A stretch of 13,853 nt of DNA from Pseudonocardiales bacterium (GCA_025965875.1 JAOPWD010000338.1:1-13853), one strand, 5' to 3'. Counted from the first letter of the stretch, positions 70 to 9,592 are shown. Program-made: numbers and translations. Notes: generated from the sequence alone by a model not told the origin.

Positions 70-111
70 TGAGCGTCTGGACTTGTATTGAGTAATACGG
101 CGACGGGTTAC
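70..111 (-). promoter_or_regulatory. Copy 4 of the conserved GTAACCC-N7-TATT promoter-like module, oriented leftward (its target gene would start at or beyond the window's left edge)
   Basis: The reverse complement of 70-111 reads GTAACCCgtcgccgTATTACTCAATACAAGTCCAGACGCTC. This nearly matches the site at 7336-7376 (GTAACCCgccgctcTATTAGTCAGTACAAGTCCAGATGCTC) over about 40 nt. Confidence 0.45.
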
Positions 112-259: not shown

Positions 260-931
260 TCAGGCGGCGAAGGTCGCGTCGGCGACGGGGGACCCTGTCG
301 GCGTGACGAGCTTGGCGCCCCGCAGATGGCCGACGTCCACGGAGCCGATGCTCTTGGCGAACTGTCCGGTCCCACCCTGGACGGTGAAGGTGCCGAAGGC
401 GACGGTCGAGCCGTCATCGACCTGGAGCATGCACTTGACTTTTCCGTTGTAGTTGGGGACAGCAACGTTCATGAACACCCAGGACGGGCTGCCGCGATAG
501 GCCACGATCTGCCCCAACACCTGGCCGTCGTCGGTCAGGAACGTTCCGGTGCGCAGCGCGTCGGCCTGCGGTACCTGCACGGCGCTGTGCGCCGGCGCCC
601 GGCTGGTCAGTGCCTCGGTAGCCGCAGCCGTTCCACCCACCAGCGCCACGACCGCGGCGGCGGCCAACAGCGCCGTCCGCGCTCTCGGTCGAGTTGCCGC
701 CCGGATCGGCGTCGGCTCCTGCCGTTGCTCTCCCTGCTTGGTCTGCTCGGACAGCTGCCGGAACAGGCCCTCGGTGAACGCGGTGCTCGGCTCGGCCTCA
801 CCCGGTCGGGCTGCTCGTAGGTCGATGGCGGCGCGCAGAATCTCGACGTCCTCGAGGCTGGCCCGGAACCGCTTCGGGCGCCGACCGGTGGCGATGGCGT
901 CGATGAAGGCGGACAGTTTGCGACCGGTCAT
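260..931 (-). CDS. Membrane-spanning anti-sigma factor. It has an N-terminal cytoplasmic sigma-binding region, one TM segment (ALLAAAAVVALVGG) and a C-terminal extracytoplasmic domain of about 115 aa.
   Basis: 223-aa ORF. Its ATG overlaps the stop of the upstream ECF sigma gene (ATGA at 928-931 on the minus strand), the classic sigma/anti-sigma arrangement. Architecture is read from the translation. GGAG lies about 8 nt upstream of the ATG. Confidence 0.75.
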   Translation of the reverse strand: MTGRKLSAFIDAIATGRRPKRFRASLEDVEILRAAIDLRAARPGEAEPSTAFTEGLFRQLSEQTKQGEQRQEPTPIRAATRPRARTALLAAAAVVALVGGTAAATEALTSRAPAHSAVQVPQADALRTGTFLTDDGQVLGQIVAYRGSPSWVFMNVAVPNYNGKVKCMLQVDDGSTVAFGTFTVQGGTGQFAKSIGSVDVGHLRGAKLVTPTGSPVADATFAA

Positions 932-1521
932 AGTTCCAACTCCACGGCGAGGGTCGCTGCCATTCGCAACGCGCGGTGCTGGAGCACTTTAGCGTTGCTG
1001 ACACTGATGTGCATGGCTTGCGCTGCTTCCTTGATCGAGCAGGCCTCCAGAAAACGCAGTTCGAGGATGCGCCGGTACCGCTCAGGGAGTCCACCCAGGA
1101 TCTTGCTCGCTCGGGCCGGCGCGTCGCTGGGCGGTTCGGACCCGGAGGGTTCGCTGAGGTAGCGGAGATCGGTGTCGGGGTCGATCATCGTCACCGGCTG
1201 ACCGAGGCGCCGCCGCCAGTGGGAGGCGAGCACGGTCTTGGCGGTGACCAGCAGGTAGGCCCGCACCTCGCCCTTTGACGATGACAACCGCAACGGCGGC
1301 AACGCCGTGCTGAAAACCTCCGAGGTGAGGTCCTCGGCGTCAGCACGGTTCCCGACGCGGGCGTACATCAGGCGGTACAGCCGGTCGATGTTGTCCCGGT
1401 ACACCGACTCCCAGTCGGTGTACCCGTCGTCGTCAACCATGTGCAGATACGCGACGCGGCCACCGCTCAGCGCGGGTGGTGGCTGGGCGGTTCGTCTCGA
1501 GCATCGCGATGCATTAATCAT
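928..1521 (-). CDS. ECF-type RNA polymerase sigma-70 family factor
   Basis: The translation has a region-2-like segment (DWESVYRDNIDRLYRLMYARVGNRADAEDLTSEVF) and a region-4 HTH (LPERYRRILELRFLEACSIKEAAQAMHISVSNAKVLQHRALRMAA). The start is either ATG 1521, which could be leaderless because it abuts the promoter-like motif, or ATG 1441 (MVDDDGYTDW...). No clear SD at either. Confidence 0.85.
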   Translation of the reverse strand: MINASRCSRRTAQPPPALSGGRVAYLHMVDDDGYTDWESVYRDNIDRLYRLMYARVGNRADAEDLTSEVFSTALPPLRLSSSKGEVRAYLLVTAKTVLASHWRRRLGQPVTMIDPDTDLRYLSEPSGSEPPSDAPARASKILGGLPERYRRILELRFLEACSIKEAAQAMHISVSNAKVLQHRALRMAATLAVELEL

Positions 1522-1549
1522 GTCACCTAGGAATAGGAGGAGGGGTTAC
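1521..1549 (-). promoter_or_regulatory. Copy 2 of the GTAACCC-N7-TATT module, immediately upstream of the ECF sigma gene (candidate autoregulated promoter)
   Basis: The minus strand reads GTAACCCctcctccTATTcctagGTGACATG. GTAACCC is at 1549-1543 and TATT at 1535-1532. The -35-like element and the 7-nt spacing match the copies at 4560 and 7336. Confidence 0.5.
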
Positions 1550-4074: not shown

Positions 4075-4459
4075 TTCGTGTCCGCTGCCGGCCGTACAAG
4101 CCGCGAGCTTGGCGGCCCGCAGGTGGCCGACGTCGACGGAGCCGATGCTCTGGAGAATTGTCCGGTCCCGCCCTGGACGGTGAAGGTGCGAAGGCAACCG
4201 TCGAGCCGTCGTCGGCCTGAAGCATGCGTTTGACCGGGCCGTTGTAGTTGGGAACGTCAGCGTTCATGAACACCCAGGACGGGTTTCCGCGGTACGCGAC
4301 GATCTGGCCCAGGACCTGACCATCGGCGATTTGGAAGGTTCCGGTGCGCAGCGCGTTGAGGCCGCCTGACGCCCCGTATGACGTACTTCGTCGCACTCCC
4401 GGTCTCCCGGCGCGGGCACGCTGACGGGCACCGCCGCGGTTGACCGCGACTTCCTGCAC
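4075..4459 (-). pseudogene. Decayed paralogous fragment of the anti-sigma factor's C-terminal extracytoplasmic domain (frameshifted)
   Basis: Minus-frame translations show LNALRTGTFQIADGQVLGQIVAYRGNPSWVFMNADVPNYNGPVKRMLQADDGSTVAF (frame A) and SIGSVDVGHLRAAKLAAC (frame B). Both match DALRTGTFLTDDGQVLGQIVAYRGSPSWVFMNVAVPNYNGKVKCMLQVDDGSTVAF...SIGSVDVGHLRGAKLV of the 260-931 gene. The DNA aligns at about 80% to 300-560 with at least two 1-nt deletions (for example cttggcgaa versus ctggagaa). Confidence 0.7.
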
Positions 4460-4548: not shown

Positions 4549-4590
4549 AGTTACGCCGCGTAACCCGCGGCCGTATTAGTCAGCGAACAC
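4549..4590 (+). promoter_or_regulatory. Copy 1 of the GTAACCC-N7-TATTAGTCAG module upstream of the PAP2-like gene, overlapped by a 15-bp palindrome GTTACGCcGCGTAAC (4549-4563)
   Basis: GTAACCC at 4560-4566 and TATTAGTCAG at 4574-4583; the ATG is 80 nt downstream of GTAACC. The palindrome was verified base by base. Confidence 0.5.
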
Positions 4591-4639: not shown

Positions 4640-5953
4640 ATGCGCACAAGGACAAGAGCCCTCACCGGGCTCGCCGCCGCGGTGCTCGTCGGAACCACCG
4701 GAACCGCCTACGCAGCCACTCAGGGCGGCCATCCGTCTCCGGGCAAGGCGACTGGGTCATCGGCCCACGGATCCGGGCAGTCGATCGTCGACTGGAACCG
4801 GGAGCTCATTACTCTGCTCGGTACGCCGGGCCTGCAACCGGCGACGATCCAACCGACCCGAAGTTTCGCGATCCTGCAGGCGGCTGAGTACGACGCTGTG
4901 GTCTCCACGACACACATTGGCCAGCCGTACCTGTTCAAGGTGCCGGCGCCGCGCGACGCGCGAGCGGACGCGGCCGCCGACCAGGCAGCGCACGACGTAT
5001 TGACGGCGCTCTACCCGGCGGCTACGAGCCGCATCGACCAGCAACTCAGCACCGAACTCGCAGCGATCCCAGACAGCCATGGCAAACGCGACGGGCGCCG
5101 TGCCGGCGCGACGGTGGCACAGCTCCTCGTCGACCTACGGGCCTTCGACGGGTCCGCGGCGCCCCCGCCGCCGTTCGTCGCCGGCACCCAGCCGGGCGAC
5201 TACCGGCCGACACCGCCGAACTTCCCGACACCGGTCTTCACCGCCTGGGGCTCGATCACACCGTTCCTGCTCACCAGCGGTTCCCAGTTCCGTCCGACCG
5301 CGCCTGCGCCGGTGAGCAGCCCGACCTACGCCACCGCCCTGAACCAGGTCAAGGCCCTCGGGCAAGACAGCAGCACCGTCCGTACGGCTGATCAGACGAC
5401 GGTGGCCAAATTCTGGGGCTCGGCACCGATCTGGAACACCTGGAACCAGATCGCGCAAACGTTGCTGACTGACCAACACGCCAACCTGCAGCGCGCCGCC
5501 ACTGTGTTCGCGAACCTCGACCTCTCCGTCGCAGACGCGACCATCGCGCTGTACGACGCCAAGTACGTCTACCACGTGTGGCGACCAGTGACCGCGATCC
5601 GGGCCGGAAACAGCGGCTACAACTCGGACATCGCCTTCGACCCCAACGCACCCACCTGGAACCCGTTGGCGGTCACCGCCGCCGATCCTTCCTACCCCGG
5701 CGCACACAGCACGATCAGTGCAGCGGCCGCAACCGTGCTCGTCGCGTCCTTCGGCAAGCACCAACCGATCACGGTGACGTCGGACAAGATGCCCGGTGTG
5801 GTCCGCACCTTCACCAACGTGCAAGCAGCGGCGGTCGAGGCAGGATTTAGCCGCATCCTCGCCGGCCAGCACACCGCCCTCGAGGACCAAGCCGGCCAGC
5901 AGCTCGGCCACCGGGTCGCCACGTTCGCACTGCATGAACTAAACGCGGGTTAG
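4640..5953 (+). CDS. Secreted PAP2-superfamily / vanadium-dependent haloperoxidase-like (acid phosphatase-like) protein
   Basis: SD AAGAGGA. N-terminal signal peptide (MRTRTRALTGLAAAVLVGTTGTAYAA). Three PAP2 motifs are present: K-x6-RP (KYVYHVWRP), a PSGH-equivalent (SYPGAHS) and SR-x5-H (SRILAGQHTALED). The roughly 250-aa N-terminal extension is typical of bacterial V-HPO-like proteins. Confidence 0.85.
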   Translation: MRTRTRALTGLAAAVLVGTTGTAYAATQGGHPSPGKATGSSAHGSGQSIVDWNRELITLLGTPGLQPATIQPTRSFAILQAAEYDAVVSTTHIGQPYLFKVPAPRDARADAAADQAAHDVLTALYPAATSRIDQQLSTELAAIPDSHGKRDGRRAGATVAQLLVDLRAFDGSAAPPPPFVAGTQPGDYRPTPPNFPTPVFTAWGSITPFLLTSGSQFRPTAPAPVSSPTYATALNQVKALGQDSSTVRTADQTTVAKFWGSAPIWNTWNQIAQTLLTDQHANLQRAATVFANLDLSVADATIALYDAKYVYHVWRPVTAIRAGNSGYNSDIAFDPNAPTWNPLAVTAADPSYPGAHSTISAAAATVLVASFGKHQPITVTSDKMPGVVRTFTNVQAAAVEAGFSRILAGQHTALEDQAGQQLGHRVATFALHELNAG

Positions 5954-6035
5954 GCCGACATCGGCTGACCCACTTCCTGAGCGGGTGGGTGGGCCGCTGA
6001 TTCCTAGCAAGCCAACCAATTCACGAGGAGCAACT

Positions 6036-7175
6036 ATGAAATCCGTCACACGCCTGGCGTCCGCGCTTGCAGTAGTCGCCGCCGTCTCCGTCGGCCTGTC
6101 CGCAGCGGCGACACCCGCCTCCGCCAGGCAAGCCATCGCCAAGCGGGTTTACAAGCAGACCAACCTTGTCTCCGACATTCCCGGACTGGCCGCCCACACC
6201 GACCCCAACCTGCGTAACGCGTGGGGCACCTCCACCGGCCCGGGCCTGCCGATCTGGGTTTCCGACAATGCCTCCGGGGTCGCCACGCTCTACGACGGGC
6301 AGGGCAACCCGGAGCCGGGGTCAGGCGCCAAACAGCTTGTGGTCACGATCCCGGCGCCCCCGTCCGCAGGAACTGGAGCTGTCGGCGCACCGGACGGCAC
6401 GGTCTTCAACCCGACGGCCGGTGGCTTCGTTGTGTCGAAGGACGGCGTGTCCGACTCGGCCCGATTCCTGTTCGCTACCGAAGACGGCACGATCGCCGGC
6501 TGGTCGCCGAACGTCGACCCCACCCACGCGGTGCTCGCCGTGGACAGGTCGACCATGACCGATCCCGCCGGGGACGTCGGCGCGTTGTACAAGGGTCTCG
6601 CCCTCGTCAACACCGCAGCGGGCAAGTTCCTCTACGCCACCAACTTCCGGTTCGGCACCGTCGACGTGTTCGACAGCAACTTCGAATTGGTGACCAGTTT
6701 TACCGATCCCACCATCCGTGGCGGCTTCGCGCCCTTCGGCATTCACAACATCGGCGGCGACCTGTACGTCACCTTCGCCAAGCAAGATGCCGCCAAGCAC
6801 GATGACGCCGCGGGACCCGGCCGCGGCTTCGTGGACGTCTTCTCACCTAACGGAGATCTGTTGAAGCGGCTTGCCAGTCGAGGCACACTCAACTCACCCT
6901 GGGCCGTGACGCTCGCGCCGTCCACGTTCGGAGCGTTTGCTGGCGACATCCTTGTCGGCAACTTCGGTGATGGTCGGATCAATGCCTTCAAGCCGACGAC
7001 CGGTCGGTTCCTCGGTCAGCTTCGAAGCTCTCACGGCGCGATCACGATTCCTGGGCTCTGGGGCTTGCGATTCCCGACCGGCTCACTCAACGTCACGCCC
7101 AACGCGCTGTACTTCACCGCAGGGCCCAACGACGAGGCCGATGGGCTGTTAGGAGTCATCACGCCGGCCGCGTGA
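6036..7175 (+). CDS. Secreted beta-propeller protein (NHL/YncE-like repeats), probably TIGR03118 family
   Basis: SD GAGGAG precedes ATG 6036, and the signal peptide is MKSVTRLASALAVVAAVSVGLSAAATPASA. The listed ORF start at 5985 is probably an over-extension. The N-terminal NLVSD...DPNLRNAWG motif and repeated Gly/aromatic blade-like segments are visible. Family assignment is from memory only. Confidence 0.75.
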   Translation: MKSVTRLASALAVVAAVSVGLSAAATPASARQAIAKRVYKQTNLVSDIPGLAAHTDPNLRNAWGTSTGPGLPIWVSDNASGVATLYDGQGNPEPGSGAKQLVVTIPAPPSAGTGAVGAPDGTVFNPTAGGFVVSKDGVSDSARFLFATEDGTIAGWSPNVDPTHAVLAVDRSTMTDPAGDVGALYKGLALVNTAAGKFLYATNFRFGTVDVFDSNFELVTSFTDPTIRGGFAPFGIHNIGGDLYVTFAKQDAAKHDDAAGPGRGFVDVFSPNGDLLKRLASRGTLNSPWAVTLAPSTFGAFAGDILVGNFGDGRINAFKPTTGRFLGQLRSSHGAITIPGLWGLRFPTGSLNVTPNALYFTAGPNDEADGLLGVITPAA

Positions 7176-7188
7176 TCCGGGTCCAGCT

Positions 7189-7232
7189 GAATGTGCAGGG
7201 TGCGGCTGCTCAACGCCGCACTCTGCACATTC
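7189..7232 (+). terminator. Strong stem-loop 14 nt after the stop at 7175 (18-bp stem with one G-U, 8-nt loop); candidate intrinsic terminator without a U-tract
   Basis: GAATGTGCAGGGTGCGGC-tgctcaac-GCCGCACTCTGCACATTC; the pairing was checked position by position. Confidence 0.55.
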
Positions 7233-7335
7233 GTGGCGTCGAATCCCGCGGTCGAGCACTTCTGCCCAGCCCGATCTCAGTGGCGCGATATCGGCTGTCG
7301 CAGCCGGTTCCGGGTCACCCTCGGGACTCGGCCCT

Positions 7336-7391
7336 GTAACCCGCCGCTCTATTAGTCAGTACAAGTCCAGATGCTCCGCTCCGAGCGGGCG
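7336..7391 (+). promoter_or_regulatory. Copy 3 of the GTAACCC-N7-TATTAGTCAG module plus a conserved leader, upstream of the Lipoprotein_15-like gene
   Basis: GTAACCC at 7336-7342 and TATTAGTCAG at 7350-7359. The following TACAAGTCCAGATGCTC is shared with the left-edge copy. The ATG is 94 nt downstream. Confidence 0.5.
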
Positions 7392-7429: not shown

Positions 7430-7957
7430 ATGATGATCAGAACCAAACGACTCCCGCTGTATGTCGCCGGCGGTGCTGGGCTCAGCGCGCTAGCGGTTCT
7501 CGGGCTCACGCTGAGCCAATCCGGCTCGAGTGCCGCCGGGGTGTCCGCGTCGCCGTCCTCGACCGTGGTTCAGACCCGCGCCAGCAACCTCGGGCAGATC
7601 CTCGTCGATGCCCAGGGCCGCACGATGTACCTGTTCGCCAAGGACACCGGCCCCGCCTCCACCTGCGTAGGCGCCTGCACGTCAGCCTGGCCACCGGTGC
7701 CAGTGTCGGCCGCGCCGCACGCCGCCGGCGGGGCGTCGGCTTCGGCACTCGGGGTGATCGGCTCGGGCAGTCGGCGGCAACTGAGCTACGCCGGGCACCC
7801 GGTGTACTACTTCGCCGGAGACAGCAAGGCCGGACAGACCCACGGCCAGGCGCTTAACGAGTTCGGCGCCAAATGGTACGTCCTGAACTCAGCAGGAGCC
7901 GCGATCGTCAAAGCCCCAAGCAACGCCGGCAACAGCGGCGGAGGGTACGGCTACTAG
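7430..7957 (+). CDS. Secreted protein with two copies of the Lipoprotein_15-type 'secreted repeat of unknown function' (COG4315-like)
   Basis: Signal peptide, no lipobox Cys. Two repeats are visible: LGQILVDAQGRTMYLFAKDTGPASTCVGACTSAWPPV and LSYAGHPVYYFAGDSKAGQTHGQALNEFGAKWYVL. A GAAGGA-like SD precedes the ATG. Confidence 0.8.
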   Translation: MMIRTKRLPLYVAGGAGLSALAVLGLTLSQSGSSAAGVSASPSSTVVQTRASNLGQILVDAQGRTMYLFAKDTGPASTCVGACTSAWPPVPVSAAPHAAGGASASALGVIGSGSRRQLSYAGHPVYYFAGDSKAGQTHGQALNEFGAKWYVLNSAGAAIVKAPSNAGNSGGGYGY

Positions 7958-7984
7958 CCAGCGGTCTCGACCACGGGCCAGGCC

Positions 7985-8227
7985 ATGACCTGGGCTCATG
8001 ATTCTCCGATCGGCCTCGCCGGCCGGATTGTCACGGCAACCCGGGGCGGGCAGGGCACCGGTGAGGTTGAGCTTCACATCCGGGGCGGCACGGAGGTTTT
8101 CATCGCCCACTCAAACGACCCACTGCCGGTCGGCGCCGCAGTGATCGTGTTTGCCACCTTGGGCCCGCGCACGCTCGTGGTCTTTCCCTGGGCTGACCCC
8201 CTCGACAACATCCTCGACCTGAAATAG
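7985..8227 (+). CDS. NfeD-like C-terminal OB-fold protein (short form without a TM segment)
   Basis: 80 aa. GRIVTATRGGQGTGEVELHIRGGTEVFIAHSNDPLPVGAAVIVFATLGPRTLVV matches the NfeD/YuaF beta-barrel pattern. It is in frame with the upstream gene and starts right after its TAG, so no upstream extension is possible. Sits directly upstream of the flotillin gene. Confidence 0.65.
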   Translation: MTWAHDSPIGLAGRIVTATRGGQGTGEVELHIRGGTEVFIAHSNDPLPVGAAVIVFATLGPRTLVVFPWADPLDNILDLK

Positions 8228-8257
8228 CCATCACCGAAAATAAGGAGTAGTACGCCA

Positions 8258-9592
8258 ATGTTCGGATACCACGTTCCCGCTCCAGACGAAGCGATGCTGA
8301 TCTCGGGAGGCAAGGCCACAGCCTCCGACGCACCGTTCAGGGTGGTCACCGGACGAGGCGCCTACGTCACGCCAATGTTTCGCAAGGCCCGATTCATCAC
8401 CTTGTCCATGTCCGAAGCCGAGGTCGAAGAGAACTGCGTGACGAAACAGGGCATCGCGCTCAAGGTCAAAGCCGTCATCGCCTTCAAGGTGGGCAACGAC
8501 ACGGAGTCCATCGTCAACGCCTCGCAGCGATTCCTATCCGACCAGTCCCAGATGTCGGTACTGACCGGCCGGATCTTCTCCGGCCACCTTCGCTCGATCA
8601 TCGGCTCGATGACCGTCGAGGAGATCGTCACCGAGCGGCAGAAGCTCGCGTCCGAGGTGCTGGACGGATCCAAGGGAGAGATGGCCAAGATCGGTCTCAC
8701 GGTCGACGCGCTCCAGATCCAGTCCATCGACGACATGGGTCTCGGATACGTCGCGGCCATGGCAGCGCCGCACAACGCGGCTATCCAGCGAGCAGCAAAG
8801 GTCGCAGCCTCCCAGGCCGATCAAGCCGCCGCCGAGGCCCACCAGGCGTCCCTGCGAGCTCAGGCCGAATACGCCCGCCAAACCGAAGTAGTCCAAGCCC
8901 AATACGCGGCCGACGTGGAAGCAGCGAAGTCCGCGGCTGCAGCTACGGCGGCGGCCGCCGCCCAGGCGTCGGCTCGAAACCTTGCCAACTACGAGGCCGA
9001 GACCGCAGTCACCCGGTCCAAAGCTGCCCAGATAGCCGCCGAAGCACAGCAGGAATCCGACCGCAACCAGGCCGACTTCGCCCGCCAAACCGCGGTCGCC
9101 AAAGCCACGTTCGCAGCCGAAACCCAAGCGGCTCAAGCCAAAGCAGACCAATCAGGACCCCTCGCCCACGCCGTGGCGCAGCAGCAGGTAATCGACGCCC
9201 AAACGGGCCTAGCCCAGCAGGAGGCCGAACTGACTCGCCAAACGCTGGTCTCCACCGTCGTACGCCCGGCCGAAGCCGACGCGGAGAGAGTCAAGATCCT
9301 GGCCGCAGCCGACGCCGAGCGGACCAAGATCTTGGCCGAGGCGGCCCAGTCGCACAACCGCGTTGCACTCGATCAACAACTCATCGCCCAACTCCCGCTC
9401 ATCGTGGAGAAGGCCGCACAGGGTTTGGCCGGCTCCCACCTGACCGTGCTCAACGGATCTGAGGGAGTTACGGAAGTCGTGTCATCGCTGGTCGGTCAAG
9501 GTCTGGCCATCCTGGACTCGATCCGGCATGGCGTAGCCGGCTCGAGTTCATCCAATGGCCTCCGACCGACCTCGCCGGCAATCAAGGCATGA
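8258..9592 (+). CDS. Flotillin-like SPFH/band-7 domain protein with an Ala/Gln/Glu-rich coiled-coil C-terminus
   Basis: Strong SD AAGGAG 7 nt upstream. The N-terminal PDEAMLISGGK...YVTPMFRKARFITLSMSEAEVEENCVTKQGIALKVKAVIAFKV aligns to the flotillin (FloT/YuaG-like) SPFH domain. An in-frame stop 33 nt upstream means the usual N-terminal membrane hairpin is absent. The C-terminal EA-rich repeat region is typical of flotillins. Confidence 0.85.
   Translation: MFGYHVPAPDEAMLISGGKATASDAPFRVVTGRGAYVTPMFRKARFITLSMSEAEVEENCVTKQGIALKVKAVIAFKVGNDTESIVNASQRFLSDQSQMSVLTGRIFSGHLRSIIGSMTVEEIVTERQKLASEVLDGSKGEMAKIGLTVDALQIQSIDDMGLGYVAAMAAPHNAAIQRAAKVAASQADQAAAEAHQASLRAQAEYARQTEVVQAQYAADVEAAKSAAAATAAAAAQASARNLANYEAETAVTRSKAAQIAAEAQQESDRNQADFARQTAVAKATFAAETQAAQAKADQSGPLAHAVAQQQVIDAQTGLAQQEAELTRQTLVSTVVRPAEADAERVKILAAADAERTKILAEAAQSHNRVALDQQLIAQLPLIVEKAAQGLAGSHLTVLNGSEGVTEVVSSLVGQGLAILDSIRHGVAGSSSSNGLRPTSPAIKA

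Follow-up and report, generated by a model that had tools for sequence, protein, structure and literature searches.

An anchorless flotillin and its OB-only NfeD-like partner are a conserved gene pair in Actinomycetota

A stretch of 13,853 nucleotides (nt) from a Pseudonocardiales bacterium (GCA_025965875.1, JAOPWD010000338.1:1-13853; "the window" below) carries at positions 7430 to 9592 a string of three co-oriented open reading frames (ORFs). ORF1 codes for a secreted or signal-anchored protein with Lipoprotein_15 repeats, ORF2 for an NfeD-like protein reduced to its OB fold, and ORF3 for a flotillin (Table 1). An earlier note on this DNA had claimed that the NfeD-like protein and the flotillin both lack membrane anchors, and this is borne out by hydropathy, by closed upstream reading frames, and by the N-termini of homologues. 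The two genes are a conserved pair found across Actinomycetota. The coordinates and the spacing given for the string, with gaps of 27 nt between ORF1 and ORF2 and 30 nt between ORF2 and ORF3, are exact on re-checking. Upstream extension of ORF2 is prevented, as the note had said, by an in-frame TAG at 7955-7957, 30 nt before its ATG and with no intervening start codon, and the in-frame stop that it had reported 33 nt before the ORF3 ATG is the TAG at 8225-8227, followed by a Shine-Dalgarno sequence. All three ORFs lie in one reading frame and the two internal stops are both TAG; we rejected stop codon read-through or fusion of the ORFs and regard the shared frame as coincidence, as the OB and flotillin genes of relatives share a frame in about one-third of loci (close to chance) and their stop codons vary.

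ORF3 matches the Pfam Band_7/SPFH family (PF01145; E value of 9.7e-15, 55.5 bits compared with a cut-off of 23.6). Against the NCBIfam FloT equivalog it scores 123 bits, below the cut-off of 700, and aligns only from profile position 21 onward. Judged by these profiles, ORF3 is a member of the flotillin family and not a FloT orthologue. It is collinear with flotillins over its full length, including the SPFH domain, the long coiled coil, and the flotillin C-terminal region. BLASTP pairs residue 4 of ORF3 with residue 28 of the transmembrane-anchored FloT of Priestia megaterium and continues to the C-terminus (ORF3 residues 4 to 430; E value of 5e-37), such that the 27-residue hairpin is all that ORF3 lacks. 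Similarly, a phmmer search of solved structures aligns residues 4 to 428 with residues 4 to 411 of human flotillin-2, and there is 25% identity to E. coli YqiK (E value of 4e-7). An AlphaFold2 model of ORF3 has helices at residues 171 to 298 and 301 to 392, flotillin complexes rank top in a Foldseek search with this model, and the PF15975 domain is found in many ORF3 homologues. A repeat search also revealed an internal duplication of 86 nt in the coiled coil (copies at 8828-8913 and 9035-9120 on the plus strand, 69 codons apart), which accounts for an insertion of about 70 residues in the 444-residue ORF3 relative to family members of about 375 residues; the coiled coils of SPFH cages are reported to have lengths that scale with the number of subunits (PMC12624060).

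ORF3 has no N-terminal anchor of the transmembrane or hairpin kind found in bacterial flotillins. Its hydropathy maximum is 1.29 and none of its 19-residue Kyte-Doolittle windows reaches 1.6; by the same measure, E. coli YqiK (2.98) and YqiJ (2.87) give clear transmembrane signals. A sequence scan of ORF3 found no transmembrane segment, lipidation site, or strongly amphipathic helix. The flotillin had been described as starting at a conserved PDEA-LI-GG segment, and this start proves to be a property of the family. More than 6,500 flotillin homologues were matched. Of the best 120, the 113 with a full-length N-terminus every one begin with M[FL]GY.VP.PD.AMLISGG, the other seven being calls that start further downstream, and no hydropathy window of 1.6 or more is present in any of the 120. 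A genome scan found the flotillin in at least 569 species genomes, of which the best 80 loci were used for comparison. In these loci the codon aligned to the conserved start methionine is ATG or GTG, and in many of them the frame is closed by in-frame stops 0 to 12 codons upstream. Comparison with orthologues, which the earlier note had set as a means of refutation, thus reveals no longer, transmembrane-bearing N-termini, and the short flotillin N-terminus is, as read from these alignments, real and not a start codon artifact.

ORF2 itself matches nothing above threshold in Pfam or NCBIfam, and its score against Pfam NfeD (PF01957) is 13.6 bits, below the gathering threshold of 29.1. Of its 29 relatives, 21 match Pfam NfeD weakly (best E value of 2e-4), and no other family is matched. 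By hhalign, the ORF2 family maps to residues 103 to 164 of the 177-residue P. megaterium NfeD, and the same method gives no meaningful alignment with E. coli YqiJ. A search of PDB chain sequences with the OB profile returned no NfeD and only chance-level matches to biotinyl domains, and a fold comparison was needed; the sequence evidence alone for NfeD identity is weak. ORF2 nonetheless has the C-terminal five-stranded OB barrel that is the partner-binding domain of NfeD. Its sole hydrophobic stretch (1.88, residues 49 to 67) corresponds to strands 4 and 5 of this confidently predicted barrel, and the N-terminal transmembrane helices of NfeD are missing from this 80-residue protein.

The same holds for the ORF2 family at large. 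An exhaustive profile search matched 402 clusters at 50% identity, and the best 148 of these have a median length of 87 residues and no credible transmembrane segment. A few OB entries are longer (116 to 155 residues) or chimeric, and their additional N-terminal residues are nonhydrophobic; these longer N-termini are evidently over-called. The description of ORF2 as an OB fold of 80 residues and nothing more is thus in keeping with both the hhalign mapping and the family median, and on these comparisons the family natively consists of the OB fold alone. A further conserved feature of the OB proteins is an acidic tail at the C-terminus (PW.DPLD..L.L), which might serve as a docking peptide.

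The 80 loci are from Actinomycetota, including Streptomyces, Streptosporangiaceae, Amycolatopsis, Jatrophihabitans, Trebonia, Solirubrobacterales, and others. In 77 of them the OB gene lies directly 5' of the flotillin gene in the same orientation, mostly with gaps of 4 to 15 nt. The flotillin and OB proteins are 55 to 98% identical across orders, from which purifying selection on both appears evident. Neighbor clustering identified no conserved third neighbor present in more than 14 of the 80 loci, and three long contigs coding for flotillins that are 88 to 92% identical have entirely different neighbors and no Lipoprotein_15 gene. A Lipoprotein_15 gene is absent beside the pair in all 80 loci, and the only contigs in which it lies upstream of the pair are near-identical ones from the same population (L005 and L006, among 87 loci). 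Because nothing but the OB-flotillin pair is conserved, we consider it a mobile two-gene operon to which ORF1 is a local addition, and the functional unit, judged from this conservation, is two genes rather than three. Of the three-gene string described in the earlier note, the tight linkage of ORF2 and ORF3 holds and the inclusion of ORF1 as a module member does not; Lipoprotein_15 as a conserved third partner is ruled out by its absence from the 80 loci and the three long contigs.

We note several departures among individual loci. The anchorless flotillin gene on the Mycobacterium branderi plasmid pJCM12687 is preceded by an OB gene that is interrupted by a stop codon (positions 2186-2489 of locus L092) and annotated as coding for a 49-residue hypothetical protein, and two loci (L010 and L011) have the flotillin gene without any OB gene. 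A metagenome-assembled genome labelled Candidatus Melainabacteria (L018) carries an actinobacterial-type pair at 70% GC, and this contig is probably mis-binned or mislabelled. The PADLOC defense models gave no matches.

ORF1 has two Pfam Lipoprotein_15 repeats (PF03640; E value of 2e-26) and a hydrophobic N-terminal signal segment (residues 10 to 28), in agreement with its description as a secreted or N-terminally anchored protein. No lipobox cysteine is present in the signal region (MMIRTKRLPLYVAGGAGLSALAVLGLTLSQSGSSAAG), and its score of 93.5 bits against the SCO0930 equivalog is below the cut-off of 275. With this signal sequence ORF1 would be mostly extracellular and therefore separated from the flotillin by the membrane. 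The earlier note had suggested that this protein supplies membrane targeting to the pair in trans, and this finds no support, because ORF1 is exported and is not conserved beside the pair.

The sequences flanking the string suggest how it is regulated in this lineage. The motif GTAACCC-N7-TATT is present in four exact copies in the window, compared with an expectation of 0.01, and one copy is immediately associated with a gene coding for an extracytoplasmic function (ECF) sigma factor (Table 1). The promoter and leader sequences at the left-edge copy and at the ORF1 copy are 77% identical over about 120 nt, and the four copies likely represent a small ECF regulon. An ECF promoter had been proposed upstream of the string, and the motif held in common with the ECF sigma gene supports a candidate promoter of this type. 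A hairpin downstream of the TIGR03118 gene is probably that gene's terminator, separating it from an ORF1-3 unit, and no hairpin is present in the ORF1-ORF2 gap. This pattern of motif and hairpin supports a putative ECF-controlled ORF1-ORF2-ORF3 transcript that would be lineage specific. GTAACCC-N7-TATT is missing from the other loci of the pair, no conserved promoter was found 5' of the OB gene in relatives, and scanning for sigma-70 promoters and intrinsic terminators gave nothing useful. In Bacillus subtilis, SigW controls yuaF-floT, and the candidate ECF control of ORF1-3 is reminiscent of this.

Two further features lie in the left half of the window. The region coding for the C-terminal domain of the anti-sigma factor (307-561) has a degraded, frameshifted duplicate at 4104-4356, 3.8 kb away on the same strand and with 82 to 94% identity, which looks like a pseudogenized paralogue. 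Positions 4640-7175 code for a PAP2/haloperoxidase-like secreted protein (437 residues) and a TIGR03118-family protein (396 residues; E value of 6e-109), the two genes apparently forming one operon behind a motif copy.

Table 1. Features of the Pseudonocardiales window, with the gene string first
Feature	Position	Strand	Description
ORF1	7430-7957	+	175 aa; secreted or signal-anchored protein, two Lipoprotein_15 repeats, no lipobox Cys
ORF2	7985-8227	+	80 aa; OB-fold-only NfeD-like protein, no transmembrane helices
Shine-Dalgarno sequence	8242-8247	+	AAGGAG, 10 nt 5' of the ORF3 ATG; direct sequence reading
ORF3	8258-9592	+	444 aa; flotillin (SPFH domain, two long coiled-coil helices, C-terminal helix) without N-terminal membrane hairpin
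Motif copy	7336-7353	+	76 nt upstream of ORF1; candidate ECF-sigma-dependent promoter element
Motif copy	4560-4577	+	62 nt upstream of PAP2-like gene (4640-5953)
Motif copy	1532-1549	-	Just upstream of ECF sigma gene
Motif copy	94-111	-	Left edge of the window, before a gene running off the edge
ECF sigma factor gene	928-1521	-	Pfam Sigma70_r2/r4 and NCBIfam ECF matches
Anti-sigma gene	260-931		After the ECF sigma gene; NCBIfam anti-sigma match
Hairpin	7188-7233	+	Perfect 19 bp, no U-tract; 13 nt after the TIGR03118 stop; -36.4 kcal/mol, z -7.4

We favor the interpretation that ORF2 and ORF3 are a self-contained, translationally tight, anchorless flotillin-NfeD operon, widespread in Actinomycetota, with the flotillin forming a peripheral membrane cage that is stabilized by the OB protein, and we give this a probability of roughly 0.6. 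ORF3 would oligomerize through its coiled-coil wall of about 220 residues and its C-terminal region into a dome or cage like those of the solved SPFH complexes. By way of its N-terminal SPFH1 surface, the cage would then attach peripherally to the cytoplasmic side of the membrane, with neither a transmembrane helix nor a lipid modification, much as eukaryotic flotillin attaches peripherally through SPFH1 (PMC11260169). This surface is conserved and locally basic and aromatic (PFRVVTGRGAYV.P.FRK.RF), with a net charge of +4 over residues 20 to 50 compared with -7 for the whole of ORF3, and it is the sole candidate membrane contact in the protein. The OB protein may bind the coiled-coil/SPFH region and thereby stabilize or bridge oligomers, for which there is precedent in Staphylococcus aureus, where the OB domain of NfeD binds FloA and bridges or stabilizes its oligomers (PMC11222466). 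In this lineage, with the pair 27 nt behind the Lipoprotein_15 gene and an ECF-type motif, the scaffold is probably co-induced by envelope stress.

Several observations weigh against this interpretation. Membrane binding by ORF3 is something that we infer and that no prediction demonstrates, and residues 1 to 50 (SPFH1) are the least confident part of the AlphaFold2 model, with predicted local distance difference test (pLDDT) values of 38 to 49. For membrane association, eukaryotic flotillins need lipidation and a hydrophobic surface rich in Trp and Cys (PMC11260169), and the SPFH1 of ORF3 has neither. A contact between OB protein and flotillin is most plausibly assumed on the S. aureus precedent, and co-transcription of ORF1 with ORF2-3 would follow solely from the 27-nt gap and the lack of a hairpin within it. 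Finally, a classical ECF promoter would have a wider spacing than the approximately 14 nt (AAC to GTC) of the motif, which could thus be a regulator-binding site instead.

How such a protein relates to the membrane can be read in other ways. A tentative reading, with the odds against it, is that the system is entirely anchor free: a flotillin with neither transmembrane nor lipid anchor and with the soluble OB-only NfeD as its assembly or targeting factor, the cage being either reversibly membrane binding (under envelope stress, for example) or cytoplasmic. It is unlikely, in our estimation, that flotillin and OB partner form a free vault- or chaperone-like particle that is never membrane bound, with a possible role in holding unfolded proteins like the one proposed for FloA-NfeD. 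Such a particle would be in keeping with the lack of a transmembrane segment, lipobox, or strongly amphipathic helix, with the overall acidity of ORF3, with the acceptance of the SPFH8 and SPFH9 families as probably soluble (Hinderhofer 2009), and with the presence of the major vault protein, which has an SPFH-like domain, among the Foldseek matches. However, a membrane adjoins every solved cage of flotillin, HflK/C, stomatin, prohibitin, and erlin, and a conserved, basic, and aromatic SPFH1 segment and the candidate control by an ECF (envelope stress) factor in this lineage both point to the envelope.

We are more doubtful that the pair is recruited in trans by an unlinked integral membrane protein, with the OB protein as a possible adaptor. 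The model for this is B. subtilis, in which the cytosolic SPFH protein YdjI/SamI is brought to the membrane by SamG/SamH, and the acidic OB tail could serve in docking; but no membrane protein gene is conserved beside the pair in the 80 loci and the window links no specific candidate, ORF1 being nonconserved and mostly extracytoplasmic. Artifact or decay, with the short forms being truncated pseudogenes or mis-called starts of ordinary transmembrane-containing genes, we consider refuted. The few longer or chimeric database entries and the stop-interrupted OB gene of the M. branderi plasmid could be taken as signs of it, but hundreds of species show N-termini conserved to the residue, stops close the frames upstream, the additional residues of the longer calls are nonhydrophobic, and purifying selection is apparent from the identity between orders.

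The sources that we compared describe bacterial flotillins and their NfeD partners as integral membrane proteins, and we found no description of an anchorless flotillin/OB-only NfeD variant in the searchable literature, the coverage of which is incomplete such that an earlier description is possible. That the clade is present in so many species genomes, including many of Streptomyces, indicates that the pair can be retained without the anchor and without the transmembrane domain of NfeD, and its retention with no anchor at all suggests that the conserved core of the system is the contact between OB protein and flotillin. It also prompts one to ask how a scaffold of this kind gets to the membrane, if it does so at all. 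The small and predicted-soluble ORF2 and ORF3 could allow the NfeD-flotillin interaction and membrane recognition by SPFH1 to be studied in vitro. Were the system to be fully anchor free, it would amount to a new way for SPFH scaffolds to operate and to a minimal, fully soluble model for the action of the NfeD OB domain on flotillin.

The model operons used for comparison are the NfeD/flotillin pair of a P. megaterium plasmid (L093), representing Bacillus yuaF(nfeD2)-floT(yuaG), and E. coli YqiJ-YqiK. On the plasmid, the neighbor of the flotillin gene carries the annotation "NfeD family protein". The NfeD2-flotillin operons (YuaF-FloT and YqiJ-YqiK) are homologous to the pair and work alike, but ORF2 and ORF3 each lack the membrane anchor: the N-terminal hydrophobic hairpin of 27 residues in P. 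megaterium FloT is missing from ORF3, and the approximately 100 residues of transmembrane helices in P. megaterium NfeD are missing from ORF2. The partners in S. aureus FloA-NfeD and in E. coli QmcA-YbbJ and YqiJ-YqiK are likewise all integral membrane proteins, unlike ORF2 and ORF3. In the prokaryotic SPFH classification, NfeD partners are proteins of 140 to 150 residues with three hydrophobic stretches, and only SPFH8 and SPFH9 are listed as likely soluble (Hinderhofer 2009). These two families and B. subtilis YdjI/SamI resemble ORF3 in being SPFH proteins without predicted transmembrane segments, but they are not of the flotillin type, having no long coiled coil, flotillin C-terminus, or NfeD OB partner; moreover, SamI is recruited by the adjacent membrane proteins SamG/SamH, and no such neighbor is conserved beside ORF2-ORF3.

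Eukaryotic flotillin-1/2 (PDB 9bq2 and 9l3g) similarly have no transmembrane segment. They are the top fold matches to ORF3, align with it over the full length, and have the same N-terminal start (residue 4 to residue 4). They differ in that they depend on myristoylation, palmitoylation, and a Trp/Cys-rich surface, features that ORF3 lacks, and in that they have no NfeD partner, in contrast to the OB-only partner of ORF3. Human flotillin-2 has much more in common with transmembrane-anchored Firmicute FloT (36.6% identity, 271 bits) than with ORF3 (26.9%, 97 bits), and the loss of the anchor therefore looks to be independent; the actinobacterial family is, by the same measure, disfavored as the source of the eukaryotic flotillins.

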